Below are positions 5,052-62,767 of a stretch of DNA of 64,000 nucleotides, in pieces. The position numbers and the translations under genes are program-made. The notes under the pieces are model-generated. The model had not been told where the DNA came from and did no database searches. It saw only the letters and a list, made by a program, of their open reading frames with translations. The stretch's first letter is position 1. Every line of letters begins with the position of its first letter. Source of the DNA: an uncultured Candidatus Melainabacteria bacterium (GTDB lineage: Bacteria > Cyanobacteriota > Vampirovibrionia > Gastranaerophilales > Gastranaerophilaceae); contig CANOTP010000003.1 of assembly GCA_947570135.1 (NCBI GenBank), forward strand, positions 88,197-152,196, given 5' to 3'.

Positions 5052-5777
5052 TTATTTTGCAGTTTTTAGAACATATCTTGCAGCCGCCGTTGCCGGTTCT
5101 GCTATTCCGTCATGAAGTCTGATTGGGTAAATATCGGTCATATGTTTTGCATCATTTTTTACTACACAAGAGTTTTCAGTAAGAGAATTTGAGCCTGATG
5201 AACAAGATACTTCTTTGTTTGGAAGAGAAGGTCCATTTACATCTATAAATGCCGTACAACCAATCAGTTCTCCGGCAGCGACATCTGTTTGTACTTTTCC
5301 AATTGAGAGTGTACAAGGGTAAGTTCCAAACATTTTTGCAAAAGCTATAATTGTCCCATCACTTAAAATGTATGCTTGAAATTTATCTGGTTCGCGTCCG
5401 GAGTAGGAAAGAAAATCACCCTTTATATATGAGTAATTTTGATTATTTTTGGTTTTTATATCTGTAATATTAGCGTAATGTGTTGCGGCTGTAAGTGTTC
5501 CGTTTATTAATGCGCAAACGGATTGGGTTGTTTCAGGGTTTTCATTTGCTGCATTTGCTCCGCATCTTTGAGAAACTCCTGCATAGTCAAACCCGTATTG
5601 GGCTTGTGACATTCTTGCGGCTTGAGATAGGGTTGATATTGATTTCTTGAATTTGGAACGATATTTTTGAGCATTTGTGTTTGCAATAAGGGTAGGGATA
5701 GTCATTGCGGCGACAACACCTATTATTCCAAGTGTTATCAATACTTCAGCCAATGTGAAACCGGTCTTAATTTTCAT
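5052..5777 (-). CDS. Prepilin-type N-terminal cleavage/methylation domain protein (type IV pilin/pseudopilin-like), tail subfamily A
   Basis: N-terminus MKIKTG/FTLAEVLITLGIIGVVAAMTIP is a class III signal with Glu at +5. An AGGAG RBS precedes it. The C-terminal tail ..YPIRLHDGIAEPATAAARYVL is shared with the remnant at 50016. Confidence 0.85.
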   Translation of the reverse strand: MKIKTGFTLAEVLITLGIIGVVAAMTIPTLIANTNAQKYRSKFKKSISTLSQAARMSQAQYGFDYAGVSQRCGANAANENPETTQSVCALINGTLTAATHYANITDIKTKNNQNYSYIKGDFLSYSGREPDKFQAYILSDGTIIAFAKMFGTYPCTLSIGKVQTDVAAGELIGCTAFIDVNGPSLPNKEVSCSSGSNSLTENSCVVKNDAKHMTDIYPIRLHDGIAEPATAAARYVLKTAK

Positions 5778-5828
5778 TATTATCTCCTATGTTAATTTAT
5801 TAAACAATATCTTTGCTTATAAGTCATG

Positions 5829-5857
5829 ATATTAGTCTAAAAATCAATATTTGTCAA
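5829..5857 (-). promoter_or_regulatory. Candidate sigma70-type promoter of pilin gene 5052-5777
   Basis: The minus strand reads TTGACA (5857-5852), a 17-nt spacer, then TAATAT (5834-5829). This predicts a ~50-nt leader with AGGAG before the ATG. Confidence 0.45.
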
Positions 5858-5879
5858 TCTGAACTTTTGTTAATCTAAA

Positions 5880-6098
5880 ATGTACAATATGATTAAAATA
5901 AGACTTAGAGAGTTAATGTGGGAGAAAAATATCTCAGCTGTTCAAATCCAGAAAGAAACAGGGATACATGCAGCAACGATTTCAAGAATTATAAACGGTA
6001 AACATAATAATCTCGGTTTGGATACTATAGATAGGTTATGTGAAGTTTTAGATTGCAAATTATCGGATTTGCTTATTTATGAGCGTGTTAACAAATAA
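5880..6098 (+). CDS. XRE/Cro-C1-type helix-turn-helix regulator, divergent partner of pilin 5052
   Basis: The 72-aa ORF (..ISAVQIQKETGIHAATISRIINGK..LDTIDRLCEVLDCKLSDLL) fits the HTH_XRE pattern. The true start may be ATG 5889, which sits 7 nt after a TAAAAT hexamer (5876-5881). Confidence 0.8.
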   Translation: MYNMIKIRLRELMWEKNISAVQIQKETGIHAATISRIINGKHNNLGLDTIDRLCEVLDCKLSDLLIYERVNK

Positions 6099-6119
6099 TT
6101 CTTGTGCTAAACTTTTGTT

Positions 6120-6767
6120 ATGAAGAAGTTTTTTGTAGATTTGTTAGACTGGATATACAAGAAGAAATGTTATTTTTGCAGGAGCTCAAAAGAATCCGTG
6201 AAAATGTGTTCAAAATGTTTTGACGAGTTGGAATTTTTGCCTGTCGGCCTTAACAGAAATCTTTGCGGAGGGATTAAAGTATACTGCGCGGGTGTTTATT
6301 CAAAAAATCTGCAAAAAATGATAAGAGGCTTAAAGTATCACGGTCAAAGAGATTTAGCTTATTATCAGGCAAAATTCATGTGGCAGTATTGGGAGCGTTT
6401 GGGGCTTGAGGGTGATTTTGTTATCGTTCCCGTGCCGATTTATCCTAAGCGTAAGAAGAAACGGAAATATAATCACATGGAGCTTGTTGCAACCGAATTT
6501 TCTAAAATTTCAGGTTACGAGGTTAATTTTGATTTAATTAAGCGTGTTAAAGACACAAAAGCACAGTATAACCTTAATAAGGCGCAGAGAATGCTGAATT
6601 TATCAAATGCGTTTGAGGTTGATAAGAGTAAATATCGGGGCGAAAAGATTTTAATACTTGATGATATTTGCACTACCGGTTCAACATTTGATGAAATGGT
6701 GAGAGAATTTAATAAGGCAGATGTTTGTGATATAACTTGTTTTGCGACAACAACACCATGGGAATAA
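6120..6767 (+). CDS. comFC: ComF family protein (ComFC-like phosphoribosyltransferase-domain competence protein)
   Basis: It has an N-terminal 4-Cys finger (CYFC..CSKC) and a C-terminal PRTase motif ILILDDICTTGSTF. Confidence 0.8.
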   Translation: MKKFFVDLLDWIYKKKCYFCRSSKESVKMCSKCFDELEFLPVGLNRNLCGGIKVYCAGVYSKNLQKMIRGLKYHGQRDLAYYQAKFMWQYWERLGLEGDFVIVPVPIYPKRKKKRKYNHMELVATEFSKISGYEVNFDLIKRVKDTKAQYNLNKAQRMLNLSNAFEVDKSKYRGEKILILDDICTTGSTFDEMVREFNKADVCDITCFATTTPWE

Positions 6768-6785
6768 GGGTAAAAATAAATTTTT

Positions 6786-7097: not shown

Positions 7098-7102
7098 TTA
7101 GT

Positions 7103-10261: not shown

Positions 10262-10294
10262 GACGGAGATTTAAAACATCTCCGCCGATTTTTT
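10262..10294 (+). terminator. Possible intrinsic terminator after gyrA
   Basis: Hairpin CGGAGAT-N7-ATCTCCG followed by CCGATTTTTT. The T-run is offset from the stem by 4 nt. Confidence 0.4.
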
Positions 10295-10950
10295 ACCAAG
10301 GATAACTTTCATCAATTATCCAGTCTGCGCGCCTTATCTTTTCTGCACAACAAAAACCCGAGTCTGTTTTTTTATTGCATTGAGTTTTTATTTCATCATC
10401 TGTTAAATCTTTGCATAACGGGTAAATACTTCCGCCTTTGGTTCCATCATTTGTTCTGGTTAGTATGAAAACGTCTGATCCTAAGATGTTTTGGTCCTGT
10501 TGATCCGTTTATGTCAACTATGATGTTTGGGTTATCTTTGTAGTGTTCCATATATCTGCCCTCGGGGAATATTACGTATAAAAATCCGTCAGGTGTCTGG
10601 AATGTTGTTCTCGAACCTGTATCGACAATTATAGTGTTAACAAGAGTTTTATTTTTTGTGTAAAATGGCTTTTCTGATTTATATCCGCAAGTCATGTAAT
10701 TCTCACAATATGTTGCAACTTTTATATACGGTGCCCAGTATGTGTTAAAATATTGATGATTACTAATGATTTTTTCAGGTTCGCCGACTTCTTCAAATGA
10801 TAATCTGTATGCTTGATTTAATATGGAGATAGATTTTTGTAACTTTGTCACTGTCGCTTTTTTTTGGTGGTTTGTTATCAGTGTCGGAATAGTCATTGCA
10901 GCAACAACACCAATAATTCCGAGAGTAATTAATACTTCCGCTAATGTGAT
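10293..10950 (-). pseudogene. Prepilin-like gene, disrupted (internal frameshift, no canonical start codon)
   Basis: Own translation gives (ATC)-TLAEVLITLGIIGVVAAMTIPTLITNHQKK..IVDINGSTGPKHL. A +1 shift near 10478-10486 is then needed to read GSDVFILTRTNDG..CNKKTDSGFCCAEKIRRADWIIDESYPW*, which is the family C-terminus. The track shows only the 10447-10896 piece. Upstream of TLAE the frame has a stop, then GEE-ATC, with no ATG/GTG/TTG. Confidence 0.7.
10858..10865 (-). repeat. A8 homopolymer in coding strand (HQKK codons) of pilin pseudogene
   Basis: T8 on the plus strand; in frame here. It occupies the same position as the A8 tract in paralogue 33603-34270. Confidence 0.75.
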
Positions 10951-11057: not shown

Positions 11058-11270
11058 ATGAATGAAATTAAGGCAAAAATTAAAATGCTTGTTATATCCA
11101 GGGGTATGACATTAAAATCGCTGGCACAACAATTAAGCGCGTTGACAGGGGAAGAATATTCTTATAACAGTCTTTTGGGTAAGTTAAATCGCGAAAGTTT
11201 GTCGTTAAAAGAAGCAGGATATATTGCTAAAATTTTGGATTATAAAATAGAATTTATTAGTATAAAATAA
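11058..11270 (+). CDS. Small HTH-like protein (non-XRE 'KLNR' type), divergent from pilin pseudogene 10293
   Basis: 70-aa ORF: MTLKSLAQQLSALTGEEYSYNSLLGKLNRESLSLKEAGYIAKILDYKIEF. It is a paralogue of 14275-14481. The pattern resembles small phage-type Cro-like proteins; the family is not firmly identified. Confidence 0.55.
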   Translation: MNEIKAKIKMLVISRGMTLKSLAQQLSALTGEEYSYNSLLGKLNRESLSLKEAGYIAKILDYKIEFISIK

Positions 11271-11326: not shown

Positions 11327-11543
11327 ATGGCTCCTTAGGATTTACTCTGGCGGAGGTTCTTATTACTCTGGGGATTACGGTTGGGGAGTTAATATTATAA
11401 CTTTTACAATAGCAAAAGGTGTATGGGTTGAAAAGACGAGAGCTGAGGTGGAACAAAACTGTAACACGGGTAACGGTTACTGGTGTTTGCAGAAGGTAAA
11501 AAACGGCAGTTGGTCGATAAGTGAAAAATTTTTTAAAAGGTAA
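11327..11543 (+). pseudogene. Prepilin-like gene remnant (frameshifted leader, large internal deletion)
   Basis: ATG GCT CCT TAG is followed out of frame by GFTLAEVLITLGITVGELIL*. Downstream, the fragment ..EVEQNCNTGNGYWCLQKVKNGSWSISEKFFKR* matches the C-terminus of 54626-55342 (EVESNCLRGDGYYCLQYLVTHGWEIS). Confidence 0.6.
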
Positions 11544-11611: not shown

Positions 11612-11854
11612 ATGGCAGATGCAAAAATTTTAGCTACTATTGAAAGAAGTGATACCGAACAATTACAAATTTCCGTTAGCGAATACAAAGGTAGAAGTTA
11701 TTTAAATATGAGAATATTTTACACCACAGATGAAGGTGCAACATGGCTGCCTACAAAAAAAGGTGTAACTTTTTCACCTGACCAGTTGGATTTGTTAACA
11801 GAAGCTATTGAAGAAGCAAAACAAGAATTTATGGCGGCAGAAGCCGAGGGGTAA
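11612..11854 (+). CDS. PC4/YdbC-like ssDNA-binding protein
   Basis: 80-aa ORF: ..LQISVSEYKGRSYLNMRIFYTTDEGATWLPTKKGVTFSPDQL.. This fits the bacterial PC4 (transcriptional coactivator p15) fold pattern. Confidence 0.55.
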   Translation: MADAKILATIERSDTEQLQISVSEYKGRSYLNMRIFYTTDEGATWLPTKKGVTFSPDQLDLLTEAIEEAKQEFMAAEAEG

Positions 11855-11970: not shown

Positions 11971-14280
11971 ATGACAGAAGAAATCGTACAAACAAATTTA
12001 TTTGAGGTTCCTGCTCGCAAGCTTACACTAAAGCGTCGGGAAGCAAAGTTTGAGGATAACGGGGAGAATATGACTCCTCGTTATGCTGTTTGTTTGGTTA
12101 ATGTTAAAGCATTAGGTGTAAAGACATTCAGTTACCTTATTCCGCCTGATATGAGTGATAAAATCAAAATCGGTCAGGCACTTTTGGTACCTTTCGGGCG
12201 TCAGGGACTTATTAATGCTTTTTGTGTTGGGTTTTCTGATTATTTACCGCCTGAGATTAAGGCAAAACGGGTCAGTAAGATTTTAGACGAAACTCCTTTG
12301 TTTTCTGTTGAATACTTAAAACTTCTTGAATGGGTCGCAAATTATTATTGTACGGATTTGATAACCGTTCTAAATGCCGCAATTCCGTTAAAACTTATTG
12401 AAAAATCACTAAAAACCGAGCAAAGTATAGAATTTGTCGGCACAGACGGCGCTACAAAGCGTCAGTTACAGGTTTTGGAATTGCTACAGTCTCAAGGAAA
12501 AATGCTTTTAATTGAGTTTGAACGCTTAGCAAAAACAACTCGTGCAACGATTAAAAAACTTGAGGCTTTAGGTTGTGTAAAACTGACAGAAGAACAGGTT
12601 TACCGCAATCCTTTGGATATACTTAAAATCGATAAAAAAGAAGATTTGTTTGAACTTTCTGAAACCCAGCAGGCTGTTTATGAGGGAATCTCAAAACAAA
12701 TAGAAGATGAGATTTGCCCCCAAATACTGTTACACGGAATCACTGCAAGCGGAAAGACAGAAGTATACTTTAAACTGATTGATGATACCATAAAATCAGG
12801 GAAAAATGTATTGTTTTTAGCACCTGAAATTGCACTGGCTTCCCAATTAACCAAGCGTTTGGCACGAAAATTCGGAACCCATGATGTTGCGATTTGGCAC
12901 AGCAGTATCTCGGAAGGCGAGCGGTACGATGTTTGGCAAAAACTTTATAAAAACGAAATTAAAATTCTGGCAGGAGCTCGTTCGGCAGTTTTTGCCCCGC
13001 TGCAAAATATCGGACTTATTATAATTGATGAAGAGCATGAAGGTGCTTACAAACAAACTTCTCCTGCACCACGTTATGATGCGCGTTTGGTTGCAAGAAA
13101 GTTGTCTGAATTTAACTCTTGTCCGCTGATTTTAGGTTCTGCGACTCCTGATATTTCAAGTTATTATCGTGCGGTTAACTCAAATCATTTGTATGAGATG
13201 TTAAAGCGCTATAATAACGCGAAAGTCGCACCTGTAACCGTTATTAATATGCAGGAGTATGGCAGAGCGGCTTATAGAAGTTTAATTTCAAAACCTTTGC
13301 AGGTTGCGATAAAAGAAACATTAGATAATAAACAACAAGTAATTTTGTTGATAAATCGCCGCGGTTTTTCAACATATACCCAGTGTCAGGGCTGCGGACA
13401 GGTTATTGAGTGTCCGAATTGTGCGATTCCGATGATTTGGCATGCTAAAGATAATATGCTCAAATGCCATTATTGTAACCATGTTGAATATTTCCCCGAT
13501 GTTTGTCCGAATTGTGGCTCTGATGCGATTAAAACCTCAGGTACGGGAACCCAGAAGGTTGAACAGTATATCAAAGATTTGTTCCAAGGGTATAATGTTG
13601 AGCGTATTGATAGTGATGTTTTGGTTAGAAAAGGCGAACACATAAGGCTTTTAGAGCGATTCCAAAATGGCGAAATTGATATTCTGGTCGGCACCCAAAT
13701 GATTGCAAAAGGCTTGGATAACCCGAATGTAACATTAGTTGGTGTAATCTCGGCTGACGCAAGTTTCAATTTACCTGATTTTAGAGCATCAGAGCGCGGT
13801 TTTCAGTTATTAACCCAGGTTGCGGGACGTGCGGGACGCGGAGAGTTTAAAGGTCGGGTATTATTTCAGACTTATAACCCTGAATATTATGCGCTTGAAA
13901 GTGCAAAATCTCAGAATTATTTGGAGTTTTACAAAAAAGAAATCGTATCGCGCGAGGATTTTGATTACCCGCCGTTTAGCCAGATTATAAGACTTATATT
14001 AAGTTCACAAAATAATTTTCGTGCTGAAAAAGCAGCACAGGAAATTGCCCTAAGGCTTTGTACTATGATTGAAAAGTTCGGGTTTGGCGAAAGATTAGAG
14101 GTTCTTGGTCCGACTCCGTGCGTGATTGAGCGGATAAACGGGTATTACAGGTTCCAGATTTTAATAAAAAATAAATTGGAAGATAAAGGACATCAGTTTG
14201 TATCAAGCTTTTTGAACAAAATCACGGCACCAAAAGACATCAAAATAACAATCGATGTTGACCCGCTGGATATATTATAA
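11971..14280 (+). CDS. priA: Primosomal protein N' (replication restart helicase PriA)
   Basis: 769-aa ORF with Walker A GITASGKTEVY, DEEH, a Cys-rich zinc insertion (CQGCG..CPNC..C..C..CPNCGS) and helicase motif VI. Confidence 0.95.
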   Translation: MTEEIVQTNLFEVPARKLTLKRREAKFEDNGENMTPRYAVCLVNVKALGVKTFSYLIPPDMSDKIKIGQALLVPFGRQGLINAFCVGFSDYLPPEIKAKRVSKILDETPLFSVEYLKLLEWVANYYCTDLITVLNAAIPLKLIEKSLKTEQSIEFVGTDGATKRQLQVLELLQSQGKMLLIEFERLAKTTRATIKKLEALGCVKLTEEQVYRNPLDILKIDKKEDLFELSETQQAVYEGISKQIEDEICPQILLHGITASGKTEVYFKLIDDTIKSGKNVLFLAPEIALASQLTKRLARKFGTHDVAIWHSSISEGERYDVWQKLYKNEIKILAGARSAVFAPLQNIGLIIIDEEHEGAYKQTSPAPRYDARLVARKLSEFNSCPLILGSATPDISSYYRAVNSNHLYEMLKRYNNAKVAPVTVINMQEYGRAAYRSLISKPLQVAIKETLDNKQQVILLINRRGFSTYTQCQGCGQVIECPNCAIPMIWHAKDNMLKCHYCNHVEYFPDVCPNCGSDAIKTSGTGTQKVEQYIKDLFQGYNVERIDSDVLVRKGEHIRLLERFQNGEIDILVGTQMIAKGLDNPNVTLVGVISADASFNLPDFRASERGFQLLTQVAGRAGRGEFKGRVLFQTYNPEYYALESAKSQNYLEFYKKEIVSREDFDYPPFSQIIRLILSSQNNFRAEKAAQEIALRLCTMIEKFGFGERLEVLGPTPCVIERINGYYRFQILIKNKLEDKGHQFVSSFLNKITAPKDIKITIDVDPLDIL

Positions 14281-14481
14281 TTCTTTAAACTCAATTTTAT
14301 AACCTAAGATATCAGCAATATGTTGGCATTCTGTAAATGAAATAGTGTCCCTGTTTAGTTTTCCATATATTTTTGCAGGAGTATATGTTTTATTTGTCTT
14401 TTTTGTTAAATGTTTTGCTAATTCTTCTACGCTCATGTGTTTTAAAGTCAGCAATATCTTTATTTGAGTTTTTATATCCAT
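14275..14481 (-). CDS. Small HTH-like protein ('KLNR' type), paralogue of 11058-11270
   Basis: 68-aa ORF: MSVEELAKHLTKKTNKTYTPAKIYGKLNRDTISFTECQHIADILGYKIEF. It overlaps the priA 3' end by 6 nt (convergent). Confidence 0.55.
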   Translation of the reverse strand: MDIKTQIKILLTLKHMSVEELAKHLTKKTNKTYTPAKIYGKLNRDTISFTECQHIADILGYKIEFKEL

Positions 14482-19355: not shown

Positions 19356-19973
19356 TTAAAACTTGTATTTATAATTTTTCGGAAATCTCCAGCCATTTTG
19401 CTGTAATAATAAAGTACAGCCTCTCGGTTTAATTCCTGTTTCGCCTTTACGGGAAAATATAAACACATCCTGACAGTATGTGTTTGGCTTTTTGCTTCCG
19501 TTAACATCTATGTAGAACCAATCGACGTAAGAAGGTTTGCCGTCTGCGTCAAAGGTATTTCTCGGGAAAAATACGATAGTCCCGTCCATTAGTTGAAATA
19601 AAAGTCTGGAATCTCCCGATGATAAATTCCATTGAGCATTGGACCATTGTTTCCAAGACATATCAGCAGGATAGCCGTAATCAACTTGAGTTTTACAGAG
19701 TCTTACAGCGCGAAAATATGGCATAAAGTAGGTTTTCCAATACTCTTCAACATTCATTTCAGCTCCCGTGGGCCAGGAATCCATACTTCCGTTATCTGTT
19801 TCAGAAAGTCTTATGGAGTTTGTAATTGATGCGTACGATTTTTTTAATTGGGTTTCGATAGCTCTTTTTTTAGCATTGGCAATCAATCCCGGTATTGTAA
19901 TTGCGGCAACTACTCCGATAATCCCGAGTGTGATTAATACTTCAGCTAAAGTGAAACCTACTTTTTTAGACAT
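19356..19973 (-). CDS. Prepilin-type N-terminal domain protein, tail subfamily B
   Basis: MSKKVG/FTLAEVLITLGIIGVVAAITIP at the N-terminus. The C-terminal part reads YIDVNGSKKPNTYCQDVFIF..LLQQNGWRFPKNYKYKF. The start is taken at ATG 19973 (RBS GAAAGG). Its stop abuts the stop of 18195-19355. Confidence 0.85.
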   Translation of the reverse strand: MSKKVGFTLAEVLITLGIIGVVAAITIPGLIANAKKRAIETQLKKSYASITNSIRLSETDNGSMDSWPTGAEMNVEEYWKTYFMPYFRAVRLCKTQVDYGYPADMSWKQWSNAQWNLSSGDSRLLFQLMDGTIVFFPRNTFDADGKPSYVDWFYIDVNGSKKPNTYCQDVFIFSRKGETGIKPRGCTLLLQQNGWRFPKNYKYKF

Positions 19974-20036
19974 AATAAACCTTTCAATTTTTAATGTTTG
20001 CATTGTTTACTACAATAAATATATTGTAATAGACAT

Positions 20037-20065
20037 ATAATAAATTGTAGAAAAATTTTTGTCAA
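20037..20065 (-). promoter_or_regulatory. Candidate sigma70-type promoter of pilin gene 19356-19973
   Basis: The minus strand reads TTGACA (20065-20060), a 17-nt spacer, then TATTAT (20042-20037). Confidence 0.45.
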
Positions 20066-20082
20066 ATGATTAAAATTTTTCT

Positions 20083-20310
20083 ATGGTTAAAAAAGAAATC
20101 TTAAAAGAGTTTGGGAGGAACCTTAAGGCGGAACGAAATCGTGCAGGGTTATCGCAAGAACAGCTTGCCGAAAAAATCGGGGTTTCGTACGGGCAGGTTG
20201 TAGGGATGATAGAAAGAGGGGAAACAAATACTTCTTTGTCTGTAATTATCGGGATTATGAATGCGCTTGATTTAGATTTTGAAAAGTTGTATAATCGCCA
20301 TAAGTTCTAA
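20083..20310 (+). CDS. XRE-family HTH regulator, divergent partner of pilin 19356
   Basis: ..RNRAGLSQEQLAEKIGVSYGQVVGMIERGETNTSLSVIIGIMNALDLDFEKL fits the HTH_XRE pattern. TAAAAT (20071-20076) lies 6 nt before the ATG. Confidence 0.85.
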   Translation: MVKKEILKEFGRNLKAERNRAGLSQEQLAEKIGVSYGQVVGMIERGETNTSLSVIIGIMNALDLDFEKLYNRHKF

Positions 20311-20329
20311 GTTAATACAGGAGAATAAT

Positions 20330-24127: not shown

Positions 24128-24808
24128 TTAATGTAAATAATCCATATTTTTAAAATTCATTATATAATATGCACATCCCCAGCCGTTACTGTTTTTTGGT
24201 AAACAGGCTGTTTTGTAAGAAAATTGTGTGCTTAACGGCGAGCCTAAAGGAACTAAACCTGAACCTGCATAATATTCAAACCCGAACATATCAATTCCGA
24301 TTACATTAGGTTTCTTTTGTGCATTAACGTCAACATAAATCAGCATTGAGTTTTTACTGCTGTTGATACTGTCACCTTGAAGATAAGGTCCGCGCCACCA
24401 AATTGATGTCCCGTTTAGTAATACAACTTTATATGCCCAATCAGCTGTTGCATAATTCTGTAAAGGACTACCCGATTTATAATTATAAACCCCGTTATAA
24501 ATACATTTTCCCTTTGAATCATTTGTCCCGCAATCTAAAAGCAGTTTTAAGTGTGGTTTAAGATTGTTTGCAATAAGTTCAGCACAAGCTTTATCTTGTT
24601 TTATACAACCCCAACCATCAACAGTACCGTTATCTTCTTCTGCTAATCTTAACGCTCTTGATAAAATTGAATATGTTGCAGTTAATTGAGAAACGGTTCT
24701 TTTTTCGGTAATTTTTTGCATTATTGTCGACATTGTTATTGCAGCAACGATCCCGATTATTCCGAGGGTGATTAACACTTCAGCTAATGTAAAGCAACGT
24801 AGTTTCAT
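24128..24808 (-). CDS. Prepilin-type N-terminal domain protein (Cys at -1)
   Basis: MKLRC/FTLAEVLITLGIIGIVAAITMS at the N-terminus. The C-terminal part reads YVDVNAQKKPNVIGIDMFGFEY. Confidence 0.85.
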   Translation of the reverse strand: MKLRCFTLAEVLITLGIIGIVAAITMSTIMQKITEKRTVSQLTATYSILSRALRLAEEDNGTVDGWGCIKQDKACAELIANNLKPHLKLLLDCGTNDSKGKCIYNGVYNYKSGSPLQNYATADWAYKVVLLNGTSIWWRGPYLQGDSINSSKNSMLIYVDVNAQKKPNVIGIDMFGFEYYAGSGLVPLGSPLSTQFSYKTACLPKNSNGWGCAYYIMNFKNMDYLH

Positions 24809-24845
24809 AAATCTTTTCCATCTTATTTTATGTAGATGCTATCAT

Positions 24846-24874
24846 ATTATACTCAGTTGATAGTAATAAGTCAA
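24846..24874 (-). promoter_or_regulatory. Candidate sigma70-type promoter of pilin gene 24128-24808
   Basis: The minus strand reads TTGACT (24874-24869), a 17-nt spacer, then TATAAT (24851-24846). A plus-strand TATAAT (24883-24888) for the XRE gene lies 9 bp beyond the -35. Confidence 0.5.
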
Positions 24875-24891
24875 TATCATATTATAATGGT

Positions 24892-25128
24892 ATGAGTAAC
24901 GATTTTGGTATGATAAGTAATAAAATAAGTAAAAAAGTTAAACTTGAACGTAATAAAAAAGATTACTCACAGGAAGAATTGGCTTTTCGTGCAGGGATAA
25001 ATAAAAATACTATTTGGAAAATTGAAACAGGACAAGTTTCGCCAAATATCGTAACCCTTGAAAAAATTGCTTATGCTCTTGAAATTGATTTTGCAACATT
25101 AACTGATGTTTCAAAAGTTGAATTATAG
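24892..25128 (+). CDS. XRE-family HTH regulator, divergent partner of pilin 24128
   Basis: ..YSQEELAFRAGINKNTIWKIETGQVSPNIVTLEKIAYALEIDFATL fits HTH_XRE. The start is ambiguous (ATG 24892 or 24910). Confidence 0.85.
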   Translation: MSNDFGMISNKISKKVKLERNKKDYSQEELAFRAGINKNTIWKIETGQVSPNIVTLEKIAYALEIDFATLTDVSKVEL

Positions 25129-33602: not shown

Positions 33603-34270
33603 TTACTTCCAAGGATAATCAGTTGGGATTTCCCAGCCGTTTCTTTGAATTAAAACTGCACAATACAGACCGTCACCTGTTTTTGAACAACTTCGTTTGA
33701 TTTCTTCATTTGTCTTGTTTGCTCCGTACGGAAATACTGAGCTGTTTTCTTCCTGTCTGTATAAAAAGAAAACATCTTTGCCGTGTGTATTAGGGCCTTG
33801 GCTTCCGTTTATGTCAATGATAATCATTCGGTCATTGTTTTCGGAAAGAGCATTTGTTATGACTGAATATGTATATAAAAGTCCGTCCATAGTGATAAAC
33901 GGACGTCGATTTTGATACACGGGAGAATTATAATTATTGTATGTTCCATTCATGTGTTTCCATACGTTACCTGGGGCTTTATATCCGCATTCCATATTTG
34001 TTTTGCAGATTTTTGTTATTTTCATGTATGGAGAAAGATATTTGTTAATAAAAGTTATTGGCTCTAATGTTTTATCCCAGGTGTCAATTTCACCGTTTTC
34101 TTCTTCAGACATTCTTATTGTCTGATTGATTGTTGAAACCGCTTTTTTTAACTTTGCTGCAGTACTTTTTTTTGATGTGTTGCAATAAGATTAGGTATAG
34201 TCATTGTTGCAACAACACCGATTATTCCAAGAGTAATCAGCACCTCTGCCAATGTAAATGCCCTTTTCAA
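33603..34270 (-). pseudogene. Prepilin-like gene interrupted by a frameshift at an A8 tract (candidate phase-variable gene)
   Basis: GGAGG-N6-TTG encodes (M)KRAFTLAEVLITLGIIGVVATMTIPNLIATHQKK, then the frame is lost at A8 (34166-34173). With A9 it would read ..HQKKSTAAKLKKAVSTINQTIRMSEEENG.., continuous with track ORF 33603-34112 (..IIDINGSQGPNTHGKDVFFLY..LIQRNGWEIPTDYPWK). Confidence 0.75.
34166..34173 (-). repeat. A8 homopolymer (coding strand) at the frameshift point of the pilin gene
   Basis: T8 on the plus strand. The ORF track confirms that the N- and C-terminal parts are in different frames. Confidence 0.75.
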
Positions 34271-34285
34271 AACAAACCTCCTTAT

Positions 34286-34303
34286 CTATCGCGTTCGCGA
34301 TAG
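34286..34303. promoter_or_regulatory. Perfect 18-bp palindrome CTATCGCG-TT-CGCGATAG (candidate operator or 5'-UTR hairpin)
   Basis: This GC-rich inverted repeat lies between the predicted pilin -10 (34314-34319) and the pilin RBS (34277-34281). Confidence 0.4.
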
Positions 34304-34313
34304 GATAGTTTTT

Positions 34314-34342
34314 ATATTACATTAAAAATCATTATTATGCAA
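34314..34342 (-). promoter_or_regulatory. Candidate sigma70-type promoter of pilin gene 33603-34270
   Basis: The minus strand reads TTGCAT (34342-34337), a 17-nt spacer, then TAATAT (34319-34314). The -35 hexamer is the reverse complement of the XRE start ATGCAA. Confidence 0.4.
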
Positions 34343-34597
34343 GAGGTTAAGAAAAAAATTATTTGTTCATCGTTAGCAAAGACCGTAAAACGTCTGAGAG
34401 GGAGTAAAAGTCAGTTTATTTTGGGTGCTGAGTATGATATTCCCTCATCTGTTATAAGTGATATTGAACGCGCAGTAAAAGACCCGCAGTTAACAACTTT
34501 ATTCAAATTATCATCAGCGTTCGGATTGACTGTTTCTGAGTTTATGAAAGAATTAGAAAATGAGCTTCCCGAAAAATTTTCGGTAAGCGAAGAGTAA
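34337..34597 (+). CDS. XRE-like HTH regulator, divergent partner of pilin 33603
   Basis: 86-aa ORF: ..LAKTVKRLRGSKSQFILGAEYDIPSSVISDIERAVKDPQLTTLFKLSSAFGLTVSEFM fits the HTH_XRE pattern, though divergent. Confidence 0.75.
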   Translation: MQEVKKKIICSSLAKTVKRLRGSKSQFILGAEYDIPSSVISDIERAVKDPQLTTLFKLSSAFGLTVSEFMKELENELPEKFSVSEE

Positions 34598-35967: not shown

Positions 35968-36294
35968 TTATATTAAATTTTTGAGTATTACTTCTATAGT
36001 TTCCAGTTTTCGGGTATCATTTTTGATAAGTTTTAAATTTTTTAGTATTTCTGAGTACAATCGGTCATTATCCTTAGAATTAGGTACACTGAATAAATCT
36101 GTGACAGAAATATCCAGAACCTTTGTAATGTTTTCGATAGTTTTTGCAGATGCAAAGCCTTTGCCTGTTTCTATCAGACTTAGTGATTTAACTTCAATAT
36201 TTAACAGTTCTGCAAGTTTATTTTGGGTTAATTTTCTTGAATTTCTCAGTCTTTTTATGTTACTGCCGAGAATTTTACATACATTGTTTTCCAT
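35968..36294 (-). CDS. XRE-family HTH regulator with C-terminal helical extension, divergent partner of pilin 36403
   Basis: MENNVCKILGSNIKRLRNSRKLTQNKLAELLNIEVKSLSLIETGKGFASAKTIENITKVLDISVTDLF. The start is taken at ATG 36294, after AGGAG. Confidence 0.8.
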   Translation of the reverse strand: MENNVCKILGSNIKRLRNSRKLTQNKLAELLNIEVKSLSLIETGKGFASAKTIENITKVLDISVTDLFSVPNSKDNDRLYSEILKNLKLIKNDTRKLETIEVILKNLI

Positions 36295-36402: not shown

Positions 36403-37086
36403 ATGAAGAAAGCTTTTACATTAGCTGAAGTGCTGATAACACTTGGGATTGTCGGAGTTATTGCTGCAATTACTATTCCGGGACTTATGACGGCTTATCG
36501 AAAAAAGGTTATTGAAACAAGATTGGTAAAATTTTATACAATAATTAATCAGGCGATTAAGCTTGCTGAGGCGGATTATGATGATAGGACGGGTTGGGAT
36601 ATTCTCGGCAGTGGTTTTATAAAAGACGAAGAGGGGAATAATACGGATATTGCTATATCTCAAGCTTGGGTTGAAAAATATATAATTCCATATATTAAAT
36701 CGGATATTAAAATGACAAATAAATCAGGTAAAGTTCAGCTGTATTTTCCAGACGGTAGTATGGTCGCCATTTCAGGATCTTCCTGGTTATTCTATCCTGA
36801 TGCTGCAAAGTATAGGTTAACGGAAGAAGGTATTATTGACGAAAATTCTGCAACAGGAAAATTTGTGTTTACTTTTTTTTATAATCCTAATTGTTCTCAT
36901 AAAACTGATTGTAAATTTGTCAGCAATGGTGTAGAACCATACAAATACGGATGGGATGGTACTAAAGAAGATTTATTCAACGGGCGTTACGGATGTGCAA
37001 AATCAGGTGCTGTAAAAGCATATTGTACTGAAATTATTAAACAAAATGGATGGAAGTTTCCTAGTAAATATCCCGTGAAACTTTAG
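36403..37086 (+). CDS. Prepilin-type N-terminal domain protein, tail subfamily B (Ala at -1)
   Basis: MKKA/FTLAEVLITLGIVGVIAAITIP at the N-terminus. The C-terminus reads ..CTEIIKQNGWKFPSKYPVKL. Confidence 0.85.
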   Translation: MKKAFTLAEVLITLGIVGVIAAITIPGLMTAYRKKVIETRLVKFYTIINQAIKLAEADYDDRTGWDILGSGFIKDEEGNNTDIAISQAWVEKYIIPYIKSDIKMTNKSGKVQLYFPDGSMVAISGSSWLFYPDAAKYRLTEEGIIDENSATGKFVFTFFYNPNCSHKTDCKFVSNGVEPYKYGWDGTKEDLFNGRYGCAKSGAVKAYCTEIIKQNGWKFPSKYPVKL

Positions 37087-50015: not shown

Positions 50016-50367
50016 TTATTCAGCAGTTTGGAAAACATATCTTGAAACGTTTGTGAACGGTTCAACCGTTGAATCATGAAAAACTACGGGGTAAACATCT
50101 TTGATATCTTTTGTTTTAACAATACAAGGCTCGTTGAAATCCATACTTGTAGTGCCTTTTGAACATTTAATCTCTTCGTTTGGCAGTGAATATACGGTAT
50201 ATTCATGAGTCCTTCTTGATATTATTGATAGTTATAAAGATTATCCCGAGGGTGATTAAATCAGAATCTATCAATGTTGATTCATCCCGTAAGGGATTCT
50301 TTATTGGCATTGACAGACTCCGTGTCACAGCACGGAGTGACAGTTTGGTTTTAGCTTTATTTTTCAT
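50016..50367 (-). pseudogene. Prepilin-like gene remnant (subfamily A): repeat-element insertion in the leader, internal deletion, frameshift
   Basis: Strong RBS, then ATG 50367 MKNKAKTK, the inserted element, then ..LITLGIIFITINNIKKDS*. In another frame, ..SLPNEEIKCSKGTTSMDFNEPCIVKTKDIKDVYPVVFHDSTVEPFTNVSRYVFQTAE* matches the tail of 5052-5777. Confidence 0.6.
50264..50342 (-). repeat. Hairpin-rich repeat element, copy B (inserted in pilin N-terminal coding region)
   Basis: The minus strand reads TGTCACTCCGTGCTGTGACACGGAGTCTGTCAATGCCAATAAAGAATCCCTTACGGGATGAATCAACATTGATAGATTC. It shares four blocks with copy A at 11864-11960. Confidence 0.55.
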
Positions 50368-50445: not shown

Positions 50446-50697
50446 ATGCAGGATACAAAAAAATTTATTGGAGCAAGAATAAGAAAGATTAGGAAACTTA
50501 AGGGGTTTAAGCAGTCCGAGCTTGCCGAGCTTATTGATATTGATCCGAAACACATGAGTAAACTTGAATGTGGAAGGTGTTTTCCTTCATTTGATTTGCT
50601 CGGAAAAATTGCTCAAAAGTTGGATAAATCAGTATCGGATTTTTTTGTGACCGAGCATTTGCAATCCCGAAAAATACTTACCGAAAAACCTATATAA
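50446..50697 (+). CDS. XRE-family HTH regulator (probably truncated by an in-frame TAA), partner of pilin remnant 50016
   Basis: MQDTKKFIGARIRKIRKLKGFKQSELAELIDIDPKHMSKLECGRCFPSFDLLGKIAQKL. The start is taken at ATG 50446, after GGAG. After the TAA the frame stays open for at least 21 more codons (KLNQATDEKFQLVYKIVNEIL). Confidence 0.7.
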   Translation: MQDTKKFIGARIRKIRKLKGFKQSELAELIDIDPKHMSKLECGRCFPSFDLLGKIAQKLDKSVSDFFVTEHLQSRKILTEKPI

Positions 50698-54625: not shown

Positions 54626-55342
54626 ATGAATTTGAATTTTCTTGGGAAATTAAGAGCGTTTACTTTAGCCGAGGTGTTAATCACTCTCGGTGTTATAGGT
54701 GTTGTTTCAGCGATGACTATACCTACTTTGATGTCCAATTATCGTAAACGCCAGTTGGAAACACAAATTAAGGCAGATTTTTCGATAATTCAACAGACGT
54801 TACGTTTTGCCGAAGATGACGGTGTTTCATACAGCATGGCAATATCTGACGGAAGCGACGCCAGTATGAAAGAGTGGTTTGATTCTTTTATTGCACCGCA
54901 TTTAAAGGTTTCGCAGATTTGCTATAACCAACCGGGGTGCTGGCATAAAATGGGTGTTGTCAAATCAATGACGGGTAATCCTCCAAAATACGAAAATAAT
55001 AACGGTATCGGCGGTAATATTATAACTTTTAGGATTACAAACGGTACAATGTTTAATATTGACGGAAATACCGCAGAAGATATGGAATCTTTCGGGTTAG
55101 ATACCACATCAGACGGGTTAACTTTTTATTTTGACGCAAACGGAGAAGGAAAACCCAACCGTGTGGGACGTGATATTTATATTATGGTTTGGTCTGATCA
55201 GGGGTTGGTTCCTGCGGGTTATAACAGAACCCCGCAAGAAGTTGAGTCAAACTGTTTGAGAGGTGACGGTTATTATTGTCTTCAATATTTGGTAACGCAC
55301 GGTTGGGAAATTTCGGATATAGTTTGGAGAAGAAAAGTCTAA
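54626..55342 (+). CDS. Prepilin-type N-terminal domain protein, tail subfamily B (Ala at -1, no HTH partner)
   Basis: MNLNFLGKLRA/FTLAEVLITLGVIGVVSAMTIP at the N-terminus. The C-terminal part reads YFDANGEGKPNRVGRDIYIMVW..CLRGDGYYCLQYLVTHGWEIS. Confidence 0.85.
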   Translation: MNLNFLGKLRAFTLAEVLITLGVIGVVSAMTIPTLMSNYRKRQLETQIKADFSIIQQTLRFAEDDGVSYSMAISDGSDASMKEWFDSFIAPHLKVSQICYNQPGCWHKMGVVKSMTGNPPKYENNNGIGGNIITFRITNGTMFNIDGNTAEDMESFGLDTTSDGLTFYFDANGEGKPNRVGRDIYIMVWSDQGLVPAGYNRTPQEVESNCLRGDGYYCLQYLVTHGWEISDIVWRRKV

Positions 55343-55680
55343 TTGTTTTTCTTTGAACCTGCATTTTGTTTATTCATGCAGTTCCCGAATTGACAATTAG
55401 CGTCGTAAGGTTGTGTTGTTTCTTCCTGAATAGGTTCCATGTTGATGTTATCAGGTAAGCTCGGCTGTCCGAGATTTGTACGATTATTCATTGTGTTATT
55501 TGGTTGAATCATCTTATTTAAACTGTTTGGAAGGATTTTATCGTGCAGTTTATCATTAATCCCTGTACCAATATCTGCTTTGCACACTCCGCCTGCTTGA
55601 TTTATCGGACATGCTGCATTTGCAGGGATTGATGCTGATAAAAACATTAACATTGCTATCGGTATTAAAATCTTTTTCAT
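55339..55680 (-). CDS. Small secreted Cys-containing protein
   Basis: 113-aa ORF with a signal peptide (MKKILIPIAMLMFLSASIPANA). No family recognised. Confidence 0.5.
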   Translation of the reverse strand: MKKILIPIAMLMFLSASIPANAACPINQAGGVCKADIGTGINDKLHDKILPNSLNKMIQPNNTMNNRTNLGQPSLPDNINMEPIQEETTQPYDANCQFGNCMNKQNAGSKKNN

Positions 55681-58862: not shown

Positions 58863-59222
58863 ATGAAAAATTTATTGTTATTATCAGTAATTTTATTAAC
58901 AGCAGGTTCTGTATCAGCAACTGAACCGTTATTGTTAACACCGTTAAGTCCTGCAGTATTGTCAACAACTCCTGCAGCTGTGACAACAACTACGACAACA
59001 ACAGGTACAAACGGCGTTCAGGTTACAACTCCGGGTGCTACAGGTGCAACTTTTACTCCCGTAAGCCAATTAAGCCCGAATATGGTGCCCCAAAATGCCG
59101 CAGCAGAAGGGAAACCAGTTCCTGCTAAACGCCAACCGAGAGTAAGAATCCAGACTAAACAAAGAAGTCAGGGTAATTCATACTGGAACGCAGGTGGCAA
59201 AGGTACAAAATCATTCTTTTAA
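58863..59222 (+). CDS. Small secreted Thr/Pro-rich protein
   Basis: 119-aa ORF with a signal peptide (MKNLLLLSVILLTAGSVSA) and low-complexity TTTTTTTG repeats. Confidence 0.5.
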   Translation: MKNLLLLSVILLTAGSVSATEPLLLTPLSPAVLSTTPAAVTTTTTTTGTNGVQVTTPGATGATFTPVSQLSPNMVPQNAAAEGKPVPAKRQPRVRIQTKQRSQGNSYWNAGGKGTKSFF

Positions 59223-60509: not shown

Positions 60510-60545
60510 ATTTACTCCTCTATTCTGAGCGAAGGGAAAAGACCC

Positions 60546-61691
60546 CTACCCCCTTGTGTAAACCCGCGGCAAGCGGACTTTCAGCCTGCAAGTCAGTTCA
60601 TAATTTATTGTATTTAAAATACTTGCCCAAGTGTCTATTGAATGGTTTTCATCAAGCAGAGTAATGATATCGCCGATTTCGGCTTTAACCCCTGTTATAT
60701 CAAACATCATTTGATCCATAGTGATGTTTCCGACTTGCGGGACTTCAACCCCATTTAAGGTTGCTTTAATCTTGTTTGACAGGAGTCTTGGTACCCCGTC
60801 CGCATAACCTATCGGAACTGTTGCAATTGTTCTGTCACCTTGGGCTGTGTATGTATGGCAGTAGCTTACACCTTCTGTATCTTTTGCGGTGTGGATGTTA
60901 ACTATTCTGCCTTTTAGTGAAATAAGCTGTTTTAATTTAGGCTTTTTAAACTCGATATTCGGAAAATCAGGATATAGCCCGTAAAGACAAATTCCGACTC
61001 TGCGCATGTTGGAGTTTTTTACGTCATAACAAATTGTTCCGACAGAGTTCTGGATATGTAAAAGCAACCCTTCCGTATCGACAGAGTTTATAATTTTGTC
61101 CCATTTTTGGAATTGTTCTTGAGCTTTATCAAGTTCTTCGGCTGCGGCTAGATGGGTGAATATTCCTTGCAGATTTATGAAATCTTTACTTTGAACTTCT
61201 TTTATAAATTCAACTGCGTCTTCTGTTCTGACCCCGATTCTATTCATTCCAGTATCAAGTTTGATATGAACTTTGGGTTTTATTCCTGTGCGCGCGAAAG
61301 CTTGTTCGCAGGCTTTTATGTGGTCTTTTGAAAAGATTGAGATACTTAAGTCGTTTTTAACGGCACTTTCAACCGCCCAAACGGGAACTGCGCCAAGCAC
61401 CAAAATCTCACAATCAATTCCTGCCTGACGAAGGTCAACACCTTCATCAATAGATGCAACACCTAACATATCAATCCCTGTTGCAAGAATGGTAGGGGCA
61501 AGCATTACTGCACCATGGCCGTAAGCATCAGCCTTCACTACTCCTAAAAGCTTTGTTCCTTGCGGAATATTTGAACGGATTTGTTTAATATTATTCTCCA
61601 GGTTAGAAATATTTATCTCAACCCACGCATCGCGGTGGATGTTTATGTTTGTTTGTCTCGTGTTTCTCATAACAATTTTAGTATAAGACAA
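60546..61691 (-). CDS. alr: Alanine racemase
   Basis: The PLP-lysine motif VVKADAYGHG is present and the overall length fits. The start is either the track's TTG at 61691 or ATG 61670. Confidence 0.93.
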   Translation of the reverse strand: MSYTKIVMRNTRQTNINIHRDAWVEINISNLENNIKQIRSNIPQGTKLLGVVKADAYGHGAVMLAPTILATGIDMLGVASIDEGVDLRQAGIDCEILVLGAVPVWAVESAVKNDLSISIFSKDHIKACEQAFARTGIKPKVHIKLDTGMNRIGVRTEDAVEFIKEVQSKDFINLQGIFTHLAAAEELDKAQEQFQKWDKIINSVDTEGLLLHIQNSVGTICYDVKNSNMRRVGICLYGLYPDFPNIEFKKPKLKQLISLKGRIVNIHTAKDTEGVSYCHTYTAQGDRTIATVPIGYADGVPRLLSNKIKATLNGVEVPQVGNITMDQMMFDITGVKAEIGDIITLLDENHSIDTWASILNTINYELTCRLKVRLPRVYTRG

Positions 61692-61719
61692 AATTTCAAT
61701 GCCTGCAATTTTTATTTAA

Positions 61720-62459
61720 TTATTTATAATTTTTTAGGAAATATGCACTGCAGCATCCGACTGAAGGAATTTCCCCCTGACCTTCGGGTCCTGCAAGACC
61801 ATACGGGGAGGTTCGCAGACCGAACTTTTTTCCACATTTACATTCTAATCCGTTTTTCTTTGTACTAAATGTTCCCTGAGTTCCCAGCGGTAGGATTTTA
61901 TCTTCGTAAACTTTTATCAAAAATAAATCTCTTCCAAGTTGATTAGGTTTGCTGTCGGGGGCGTTTACATCAACTCCGCTCCAAGGGTCGCCGTGGTTTC
62001 CGCTTAATATAAGTACGCTGCTGTCTTTTAACAAAAGCCGCATCCGACCGCCTATCGAATATGATACTTTGGATTTGTACATCAATTAACTCTTGTTGAT
62101 CCTATACCAAAAATGTGATGTTGAGCAATAAGGTGCCATAGGGAAGTTAAAACATTACCTGAGATATTTAATTCCTCCATAAAAGCATCTATAAAATTAT
62201 CAGAAAATTGAAAATAAATATCGCCGTATTTACTTTCTCTTTTGCTTGAATCAAGTATGCAATTTGTAAACCTGTAAGGTGAAATATCTCTGTTTAAGAC
62301 CCGTTTATAAGCATCATATACGGTTGCGTATGTTTTCCACCAATGAGCAATATTATGTCGGTCTTGGATTTTATTTATAAGATTAGGTATGGTCATTGCC
62401 GCGACAACCCCGATAATTCCGAGTGTTATTAATGTTTCCGCCAAAGTGAATGCCAGTAT
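61720..62459 (-). pseudogene. Prepilin-like gene, split by a frameshift near 62085 and lacking a canonical start
   Basis: The N-terminal piece ..GRILA/FTLAETLITLGIIGVVAAMTIPNL.. (track 62082-62444) and the C-terminal piece ..GVDVNAPDSKPNQLGRDLFLIKVY.. (track 61720-62085) are in different frames. Upstream of AFTLAE there is no ATG/GTG/TTG before an in-frame TGA. Confidence 0.65.
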
Positions 62460-62503
62460 CCTTCCAGCCTTTCTCTGTCGTTAGTGGCGACATATCATAA
62501 AAT

Positions 62504-62767
62504 ATGTTTATGTGCAACAATTTTAGAAAAGCTTTAGGTAAAAGTCTTAAAAAAATACGAACAGAAAAAGGTTTGACGCAGGAATCGGTTTATTTTGAAT
62601 CTGGGATTTCGCGTTCGCATATTGCGATGATTGAGGTGGGAAAACGTGATATTTCGGTTAGTGCGCAGTTTAAGATTTCAAGAGCTTTAGGAGTTAGGTT
62701 TGGGGCGATTTTTGAGTTTGACGATATTGATAAGTTTAAGTTTGATGTTGAAGAATTGTATAAATAA
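62504..62767 (+). CDS. XRE-family HTH regulator, divergent partner of pilin remnant 61720
   Basis: ..LKKIRTEKGLTQESVYFESGISRSHIAMIEVGKRDISVSAQFKISRALGVRFGAIF fits HTH_XRE. TAAAAT abuts the first ATG, and a third-codon ATG (62510) lies 6 nt after it. Confidence 0.8.
   Translation: MFMCNNFRKALGKSLKKIRTEKGLTQESVYFESGISRSHIAMIEVGKRDISVSAQFKISRALGVRFGAIFEFDDIDKFKFDVEELYK

Follow-up and report, generated by a model that had tools for sequence, protein, structure and literature searches.

Introduction

Enterobacterial fimbriae of the papI-papBA type are encoded at many loci, each of which carries a small divergent local regulator and is switched ON or OFF on its own; Dam methylation and Lrp are required for switching in the case of Pap. 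The controller (C) proteins of restriction-modification systems are dimeric, bind palindromes upstream of their own genes and act as concentration-dependent switches on the neighbouring gene. A precedent of another kind is given in two accounts of Neisseria (PMC2193922, PMC5953494), i.e. the phase variation of pilC and pgtA by homopolymer tracts. The present analysis deals with ten pilin-like loci, most of them paired head-to-head with a gene for a small helix-turn-helix (HTH) protein, that are distributed over a stretch of 64,000 nucleotides (contig CANOTP010000003.1 of assembly GCA_947570135.1, positions 88,197 to 152,196; this whole stretch is termed the window in the following). The window (GC content approximately 35-36%) derives from a metagenome-assembled genome (MAG) of gut Gastranaerophilales; the same sequence is present in ENA ERZ14864034 NODE_21 and in GCA_947363205.1 CANAOI010000001.1.

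The Gastranaerophilales constitute a non-photosynthetic sister lineage of the cyanobacteria and are, to our knowledge, widespread gut bacteria that are still uncultured and whose biology has been deduced almost wholly from genomes. The published genome papers on this order note just the presence of pil genes; a Gastranaerophilus genome with pilA, pilB, pilC, pilD and pilT has been described (PMC5877343). The original prediction, which had been made from the letters of the window, stated that no described system with the present architecture was known, and literature searches on Gastranaerophilales/Melainabacteria pilins and on the divergent transcription of pilin and XRE genes indeed found none.

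Results and Discussion

Pairing of pilin-like genes with divergent HTH genes

One genome per GTDB species was searched with the conserved pilin N-terminus, which resulted in 573 confirmed relatives; almost without exception, the best 80 of these 573 derived from MAGs labelled Candidatus Gastranaerophilales or Melainabacteria or from mislabelled gut MAGs, e.g. "Clostridium sp. CAG:768". The window and 80 related loci (approximately 1.2 Mb in total, open reading frames (ORFs) called) formed the adjacency data set, for which hidden Markov models were made from the window HTH proteins and from proteins of the 11058 type (see below); a gene of at least 100 amino acids (aa) was regarded as paired if a small HTH ORF started on the opposite strand at most 300 bp upstream. 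Among the 92 pilins for which the upstream sequence was long enough, 47 had a divergent small HTH gene, as compared with 9 among the 944 other genes (Fisher P=3e-46, odds ratio 108). As five of these nine "other" genes were the window's disrupted pilins or a long-leader pilin, the corrected contrast is about 52/97 pilins versus 4/939 other genes. Viewed from the side of the regulators, 47 of the 70 small HTH-like ORFs adjoin an intact pilin. The enrichment check that had been proposed was thus clearly positive, and since the adjacency is enriched across the window and 80 loci, the pairing is a conserved feature of the order Gastranaerophilales and not a peculiarity of the window.

Adjacency could be without regulatory meaning if the HTH protein regulated its own gene or acted elsewhere and both genes merely gathered in permissive intergenic slots that separate housekeeping operons, e.g. 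because they had been inserted together as a mobile cassette. This explanation appears unlikely: divergent orientation and a short spacer are combined at roughly half of the pilins but at very few other genes (the corrected contrast given above), the spacers in the window (44-109 bp) are too short for two independent promoters, and neither a transposase, nor an integrase, nor flanking repeats were seen around the modules.

Within the window, tblastn with the five intact proteins matched exactly ten loci and none further, i.e. the ten that had been predicted, and the translations of the five intact pilin ORFs were as described before. Eight of the loci form head-to-head modules as proposed, with spacers of 102, 107, 109, 83, 66, 108, 78 and 44 bp between the start codons in the order of the window. 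The regulator genes 5880..6098 (+; 72 aa; HTH_26/HTH_3, HTH_26 E=9e-18), 20083..20310 (+; 75 aa; HTH_3, E=9e-13) and 24892..25128 (+; 78 aa; HTH_3, E=7e-12) face the intact pilin-like genes 5052..5777 (-; 241 aa), 19356..19973 (-; 205 aa) and 24128..24808 (-; 226 aa), respectively; 34337..34597 (+; 86 aa; HTH_3, E=5e-6) faces 33603..34270 (-), a pilin gene in the OFF frame; 35968..36294 (-; HTH_3 with C-terminal extension by Pfam; 108 aa from the ATG picked by gene callers) faces the intact gene 36403..37086 (+; 227 aa); and 11058..11270 (+; 70 aa), 50446..50697 (+; 83 aa; HTH_3 by Pfam) and 62504..62767 (+; 87 aa; HTH_3, E=4e-13) are located beside the dead pilins 10293..10950 (-), 50016..50367 (-) and 61720..62459 (-), the latter two regulators being intact like the first. 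The remaining two loci are the pilin remnant 11327..11543 (+) and the intact gene 54626..55342 (+; 238 aa), which has no HTH partner and lies 3' of a terminator-like hairpin. In the following, genes of the window are named by their first coordinate and loci from other samples or related genomes by L-numbers (L001, L124 etc.).

The assignment of the eight regulators as HTH proteins held for seven, which pass Pfam HTH_3 or HTH_26, whereas the 11058 protein passes no model. It represents a second, very divergent XRE-like family of proteins of approximately 70 aa (the 11058 type) with weak similarity to HTH_26 (E=0.12) and DUF6471, and hhalign to the XRE set extended across the whole HTH domain (E=9e-4, 23% probability); homologues of 11058 are divergent from pilins in L034, L044, L047, L055, L056, L066, L076 and L078. 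For HTH 5880, the index of the assembly collection lists the identical protein in 417 blocks.

The window contains two more small HTH genes, 14275-14481 (-) and 50816-51049 (+), which had been overlooked in the original prediction. The former encodes a 68-aa paralogue of the 11058 type and is head-to-head with a 110-aa ORF (14605-14937, +) that shows no pilin motif and no Pfam match; this pair could be a module with another partner gene or a lost pilin slot. The latter (XRE HTH, 77 aa, HTH_3 E=2e-14) is located just 3' of HTH 50446, so that two regulators stand beside the dead 50016 copy; its 68%-identical homologue in L090 (9585-9815) is head-to-head with an intact pilin. Directly after HTH 20083 and before dapA, an EF-hand protein is encoded (20279-20647, +; 105 aa in most other samples), the gene of which is retained at 5/5 places (L109-L113); a calcium-binding protein is thereby encoded within a pilin module.

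Control regions and operator-like sites

The spacer of the 33603 module contains an operator-like palindrome, CTATCGCG-NN-CGCGATAG (34285..34304), which is perfect (CTATCGCG-AA-CGCGATAG) and has a single occurrence in the window. The orthologues of its HTH 34337 comprise 117 clusters (90% clustering) of 56-100% identity to the window protein, and contigs were taken for orthologues of 76, 69, 62 and 60% identity. At orthologues of 60-100% identity the sequence TATCGCG-WW-CGCGATAG is found approximately 37 nt 5' of the HTH start in spacers that have otherwise diverged, the exception being L126 with a degenerate half-site. This conservation is strong comparative evidence for the palindrome as the predicted own site of the 34337 HTH. 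The interpretation of 34285-34304 as an intrinsic terminator was rejected, as the orthologues retain the palindrome without a T-run.

The divergent partner of these orthologues is a DUF6613 pilin in L126-L128, a family-8 glycosyltransferase in L129, GerE in L132 and an ATP-grasp TupA-like protein in L135. The orthologues that face non-pilin genes are those of 60-69% identity, and two of the partners are surface-polysaccharide-type enzymes. Since the same operator occurs with a changing partner gene, HTH and operator form a stable unit with an exchangeable partner; the occurrence of this operator beside unrelated partners is also what an adjacency without regulatory meaning would lead one to expect. 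Accordingly, one dedicated regulator per pilin, as had been proposed, agrees with the enriched adjacency but does not describe the 34337 lineage, which also faces non-pilin genes.

A second conserved site is present in the control region of the 19356 module (19974..20082), where a promoter-like sequence TTGACA-17-TATTAT is followed by the palindrome TACAATA-N4-TATTGTA; the palindrome ACAATA-N4-TATTGT and the promoter TTGACA-17-TATTAT are both kept in L086. Written out, the palindromes of the module spacers read CTATCGCGAACGCGATAG and TACAATATATTTATTGTA. The conserved palindromes are positioned between the predicted -10 element of the pilin and its ribosome-binding site, which again argues against an adjacency devoid of regulatory meaning. 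In the control region of the 5052 module (5778..5879), the motif search detected TTGACA-17-TAATAT in the direction of the pilin, and this region is conserved in L124. The control region of the 24128 module (24809..24891) combines TTGACT-17-TATAAT with a 14-nt direct repeat, (A/T)TATAATATGATA, the two copies of which are 35 nt apart and one of which overlaps the pilin -10; its length was unmatched in 300 shuffles. In contrast to the other modules with their palindromes, this module may thus have an operator of the direct-repeat kind. Window-wide, TTGACW-N17-TANNWT gave five matches (1.5 expected), four of them in module spacers and aimed at pilins.

The palindromes are module-specific and conserved, and the spacers could not accommodate two promoters together with two leaders; a bound protein would hardly be able to spare either gene, and local control is likely. 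From these sequences we infer that the HTH proteins bind the palindromes; the regulation may be repression, activation or both, and the repressor-like role and individual switching that had been proposed are putative.

Conservation of the regulators and turnover of the pilins

Between the window and L124, nucleotide identity amounts to 96% for the HTH coding sequence, 93% for the spacer, 84% for the flanking comFC-like gene and 62% for the pilin head; the 5880 protein of L124 is identical to that of the window, and the orthologue of pilin 5052 is 65% identical. That the spacer has diverged less than the coding DNA next to it is not easily reconciled with two genes that adjoin each other without regulatory consequence. 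The same pattern was observed for other orthologous modules, with identities of HTH and pilin of 88% and 53% (L059/L065), 79% and 50% (L024/L075), and 76% and approximately 30% (window 19356 module versus L086).

Orthologous slots may also differ in their pilin. The slot nusB / HTH (84% to 34337) / pilin / ftsY in L021 is orthologous to the 33603 module of the window; its pilin, however, is 66% identical to 36403 and only approximately 31% identical to 33603. In L084, the slots around the dapA-secF block hold pilins, one without an HTH gene and the other in an inverted module. Such slots with another pilin type, a missing HTH or an inverted module would fit an adjacency without regulatory meaning. 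An "empty site", i.e. a module missing between the same flanking genes in a relative, was not found; synteny was broken in L063.

Five loci had been described as disrupted, which is correct for four fixed pseudogenes or remnants, whereas 33603-34270 is not decayed. The pseudogene 10293-10950 is devoid of leader and start codon in 5/5 samples and carries an A3-to-A4 frameshift in 4/5 of them (L009 being without frameshift). In the remnant 11327..11543, an N-terminal GFTLAEVLITLGI stretch is joined out of frame to a C-terminal piece (tblastn matches at 11335-11376 and at 11433-11540, E=6e-6). The remnant 50016..50367 is of the 5052 type (46% identical to the C-terminus of 5052 by tblastn, E=8e-13), and the pseudogene 61720-62459 has ATA instead of a start codon and an internal frameshift; ten other samples are identical to the latter over the available sequence, except for one contig that diverges from mid-gene. 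This contig, L013 (ERZ14230265), diverges completely in the equivalent of approximately 61720-61960 and represents either a structural variant or a chimeric contig. Among the intact genes, 19356 was intact at 5/5 places compared, and 24128 was full-length (226 aa) at the 7/7 places covering the whole gene, while three others end at a contig edge.

None of the HTH genes next to the four dead pilins is disrupted, and proteins of exactly the same sequence were found in many samples, which argues for selection of their own. That HTH genes outlast dead pilins would also suit the view that the two genes are functionally independent neighbours. It does not suit pairs that serve as toxin-antitoxin or in anti-phage defence, in which the XRE HTH protein would be the antitoxin or the sensor, as suggested by the presence of small XRE HTHs (HipB, HigA) among the weaker PDB matches: intact HTH genes beside dead partners leave no room for an addiction logic, the genes are divergent instead of co-transcribed, and the partner protein, which carries a class-III signal peptide, is secreted and of a structural type. 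Such pairs are therefore considered highly improbable.

From these comparisons, regulator and operator appear to be under strong purifying selection, whereas the pilin heads are fast-evolving, replaced or decaying. The high turnover that had been suspected from the window is corroborated by fixed pseudogenes, remnants, a mosaic allele (see below), the pilin replacement at an orthologous slot and hypervariable heads. Gene conversion among the paralogues via their conserved 5' ends was rejected as a source of variation, because long identical stretches are missing: the 5' ends differ by many synonymous substitutions, and the longest identical run is 18 nt, the median 5 (some pairs being offset by a codon or two). 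In consequence, there was no sign of pilE/pilS-type gene conversion in the window.

A candidate frameshift switch in the 33603 gene

The 33603-34270 gene differs from intact 222-aa alleles by the length of a coding poly-A tract alone (T8 on the plus strand, 34166-34173), eight A residues corresponding to the off state and nine to the on state. The tract was A8 in six samples and A9 in four, both states being represented in ENA and Logan assemblies, and L104 differs from the window allele by one extra A (A9) and by nothing else. Because A8 and A9 occur on an otherwise identical haplotype, the 33603 locus is a candidate phase switch; its variation would fit slipped-strand phase variation, i.e. 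a reversible poly-A frameshift.

The L001 allele of 33603 is intact and mosaic: all of its 58 substitutions are within nt 179-434 and none elsewhere. Its variable middle did not match any window paralogue, so that a copy of one of these was rejected; it has the appearance of a segment imported from another, diverged 33603 allele. In L004/L103 (SRR29149393), the tract is A9, and a 78-bp deletion in the equivalent of 34260-34336 removes the pilin start codon and the entire spacer with its palindrome; this deletion is either another silencing route for the 33603 gene or an assembly artefact.

Nature of the pilin-like proteins

The profile check proposed for the pilins was passed by all five intact proteins in the case of TIGR02532, the NCBIfam prepilin N-terminal domain (16.8-23.0 bits, cut-off 16.3), and by two of them, 5052 (23 bits) and 19356 (22.1 bits), in the case of Pfam N_methyl. 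The gathering threshold of DUF6613 (PF20318; 24.3 bits) is exceeded by 36403 (73.4 bits, the best member of the family in the window), 19356 (33.7 bits) and, as a precomputed hit, 33603; 5052, which has a "YPI..HD...RYV" tail, 24128 and 54626 are below the threshold although they are clear paralogues of members. The Pfam family thus covers only part of the repertoire. With clustering at 90% identity, the pilin family comprises more than 3000 clusters, almost all of which originate from MAGs of Gastranaerophilales/Melainabacteria.

In an alignment of 73 sequences, there is no or almost no variation at F5 and E9 (F+1 and E+5) and in the TLAEVLITLG stretch, and the C-terminal Cys pair C198 and C208 is at least 90% conserved. 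The class-III signal motif that had been recognised in the window is therefore confirmed with respect to Phe+1 and Glu+5; the Gly expected at -1 is present in just two of six complete genes (5052, 19356), the others having Ala (36403, 54626, 33603) or Cys (24128). The L124 orthologue of pilin 5052 (L124:50-895, -) has 39 extra aa before the cleavage site (117-nt insertion, "...REESTLIDSD..."), resulting in a 42-aa leader that is very long for a type IVa pilin; the dead 50016 copy retains a relic of this long leader ("ESTLIDSD").

The AlphaFold2 model of 36403, based on 73 homologues (pLDDT 91.9, pTM 0.85), consists of an alpha1 helix of 53 residues (residues 7-59) and a beta-sheet head with seven strands, in agreement with the pilin-like identity that had been assigned and with the N-terminal models passed. 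According to the sequence profile of the family, solved pilins match over the first approximately 40 residues only, the head being unmatched; Foldseek of the model versus PDB gave the full-length PAK pilin as a weak top match (E=0.07) and no match at E<0.001 that would identify the head domain. Judged from sequence and model, the proteins are a lineage-specific family of type-IV-pilin-like proteins, and they are presumably assembled into filaments.

Components of a pilus machine were detected in related genomes. In L066, a gene for a PilB-like ATPase is located 2.4 kb from a pilin (559 bits, which is under the equivalog cut-off of 676 bits). A retraction ATPase of the PilT family was found in related genomes at 507 bits (cut-off 319). 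The PilB-like ATPase (L066:5594-7603, +) has an N-terminal MshE-type domain for the binding of cyclic di-GMP (49.5 bits, cut-off 38), which suggests a second-messenger control of pilus assembly in the order.

A prepilin-type signal might also be carried by proteins that are not alternative pilus subunits but pseudopilins, minor pilins, or surface or secreted proteins that simply take the route via prepilin peptidase, as do other greatly expanded families with such an N-terminal motif; the HTH modules would then control surface proteins in a general sense. This is possible, though rather doubtful, and it would leave the regulatory part of the favoured explanation untouched and differ in the function of the cargo. 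Named members of the family carry the PGAP name "type II secretion system protein", the large heads (approximately 150-190 aa) are without a solved structural relative beyond the marginal PAK pilin match, Ala predominates at -1, many copies per genome are unusual for major pilins, and distant orthologues of HTH 34337 are paired with a glycosyltransferase and an ATP-grasp protein, i.e. with surface-related genes. The model, on the other hand, has the full-length alpha1 helix and head of polymerising pilins, Glu+5 is invariant, the near-consensus promoters suggest high expression as for structural subunits, and PilB-like and PilT-family ATPases exist in related genomes.

Proposed local control of single pilin genes

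Taken together, the favoured explanation is that the HTH protein exerts local transcriptional control on the neighbouring pilin gene, to which we assign a probability of roughly 0.6. The HTH dimer would bind its own operator in the 44-109 bp spacer and would thereby set its own expression and that of the pilin, which is preceded by a near-consensus promoter of the sigma-70 type; as the spacer is too short for two separate promoters, one binding event would set the expression of both genes. Each paired pilin would thus possess a private transcriptional switch, and at least one copy would have a second layer of control, the coding poly-A flipping the reading frame between on (A9) and off (A8). 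Regulators would be kept while the pilin heads diverge, are replaced or decay, and the outcome would be a variable repertoire of separately controllable subunits for a shared type IVa pilus machine, with host immunity, phage and changing adhesion targets in the gut as the likely selective forces.

Several observations weigh against this interpretation. Co-diversification of HTH proteins and pilins, a check that had been proposed with the original prediction, was weak (Mantel r=0.17, p=0.02; nearest neighbours agree in 4/39 pairs), so that duplication and divergence of the modules as co-adapted pairs was dropped; the weak distance correlation results from the regulators being far more conserved than the pilins at orthologous modules, but it would also be expected from an adjacency without regulatory meaning. 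An HTH partner is present at no more than roughly half of the pilin genes, and those without, like 54626, are mostly located 3' of a housekeeping gene in the same orientation. As distant orthologues of HTH 34337 face non-pilin genes, that regulator is not intrinsically pilin-specific. A generic scan for sigma-70 promoters gave 17 sites versus 20.6 expected and was uninformative in AT-rich DNA, and repeats or palindromes in single spacers were, with the exception of the 24128 direct repeat, mostly no longer than in shuffles; the operator argument hence rests on conservation across species. Homopolymers of at least eight residues are just 1.6-fold enriched in pilin genes (P=0.06, in a set biased toward intact ORFs). 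Homopolymer phase variation across the whole family was dropped on these grounds, and frameshift switching is documented for one locus only. With regard to the pilus itself, the -1 residue across the family is Ala in approximately 60% and Gly in approximately 40% of the sequences, which is atypical for substrates of bacterial prepilin peptidase, and no pilus machinery was found within the window.

A more far-reaching version of local control, which we put forward tentatively, is an unrecognised form of surface variation that would comprise dozens of scattered single-gene pilin loci, each with an HTH switch resembling a bistable controller, and frameshift-prone tracts in some copies. Cells would then show different pilin combinations on a single type IVa machine shared by all copies, without DNA rearrangement, and the HTH gene together with its operator would act as a portable "switch cassette" for other surface genes, e.g. 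glycosyltransferases.

If local control is true, type IV pilin variants would be under per-gene transcriptional control, as opposed to the recombination-based variation in Neisseria, and a regulator per pilin combined with fast-evolving heads would point to strong selection on the cell surface by host immunity, phage or attachment targets. The modules supply testable parts, i.e. short operator sequences, regulators of 70-110 aa and strong promoters, which would amount to a compact set of orthogonal regulator-operator pairs if HTH and operator are portable. In addition, DUF6613 gains a genomic context.

Genes in the neighbourhood of the modules

The housekeeping genes between which the modules had been located were found again, namely comFC-like, gyrA, PC4/priA, DHDPS, SecF and GerE and, further on, FtsY, NusB, S1, PBP1A, chorismate synthase, alanine racemase and an ArsP permease. 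The PC4-type gene (11612-11854, +), placed between the pilin remnant 11327 and priA, encodes an 80-aa protein with a single-stranded-DNA-binding domain of the eukaryotic transcriptional coactivator p15 type (E=5.5e-15). Two larger ORFs, 39177-42728 (-; 1183 aa) and 43761-44909 (-; 382 aa), had no Pfam match at E<=1e-5, the first being conserved in other samples. The small ORFs 55339-55680 (-) and 58863-59222 (+) encode proteins with an N-terminus resembling a signal peptide and a body of low complexity, which in one of the two includes a Thr-rich tract. No Pfam match was obtained for the former, which directly adjoins pilin 54626 at its 3' end.

Comparison with known systems

The proteins share with type IVa pilins (PilA of Pseudomonas, cyanobacterial pilA paralogues) the class-III signal peptide with F+1 and E+5, the hydrophobic alpha1 of approximately 53 residues, the beta-sheet head, the C-terminal Cys pair and the presence of several paralogues per genome, and genomes related to the window encode the PilB-like and PilT-family ATPases of such a system. 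In contrast to type IVa pilins, the head of the window family is without a sequence match or clear structural match, Ala occupies -1 in approximately 60%, the genes are scattered singly among housekeeping genes instead of being organised in pil operons, and half of the family's genes have their own divergent HTH gene. Three of the window pilins are members of Pfam DUF6613, for which Pfam lists no function; no paper mentioning DUF6613 was found in the literature search.

With respect to the regulators, the solved structures closest to HTH 20083 are the restriction-modification controllers C.AhdI (E=1e-7) and C.BclI (E=8e-7). Common features are an XRE fold of 70-90 aa and a palindrome at a fixed distance just 5' of the protein's own gene. 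The window modules differ in that they adjoin pilin and housekeeping genes instead of genes for a restriction enzyme or a methylase, in that the partner is divergent and not downstream in an operon, and in that the operators are unrelated to C-boxes. The logic of a local divergent regulator per subunit locus is that of the papI-papBA fimbriae; those, however, are chaperone-usher pili made of non-homologous proteins, whereas the window loci consist of a single pilin gene without assembly genes.

The 33603 gene has in common with slipped-strand variation in Neisseria that the length of a coding homopolymer sets the frame and that both lengths occur in natural populations; here, the tract is a poly-A of 8/9 in the pilin gene itself and concerns one of ten loci. 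The pilE/pilS gene conversion of Neisseria, which involves one expression locus and silent cassettes without promoter that have conserved blocks of DNA in common, differs further in that no intact copy of the window lacks a start, a ribosome-binding site or promoter-like elements of its own. The architecture described here thus resembles divergent-regulator fimbriae, C-protein switches and the homopolymer variation of Neisseria, and is a member of none of these systems.

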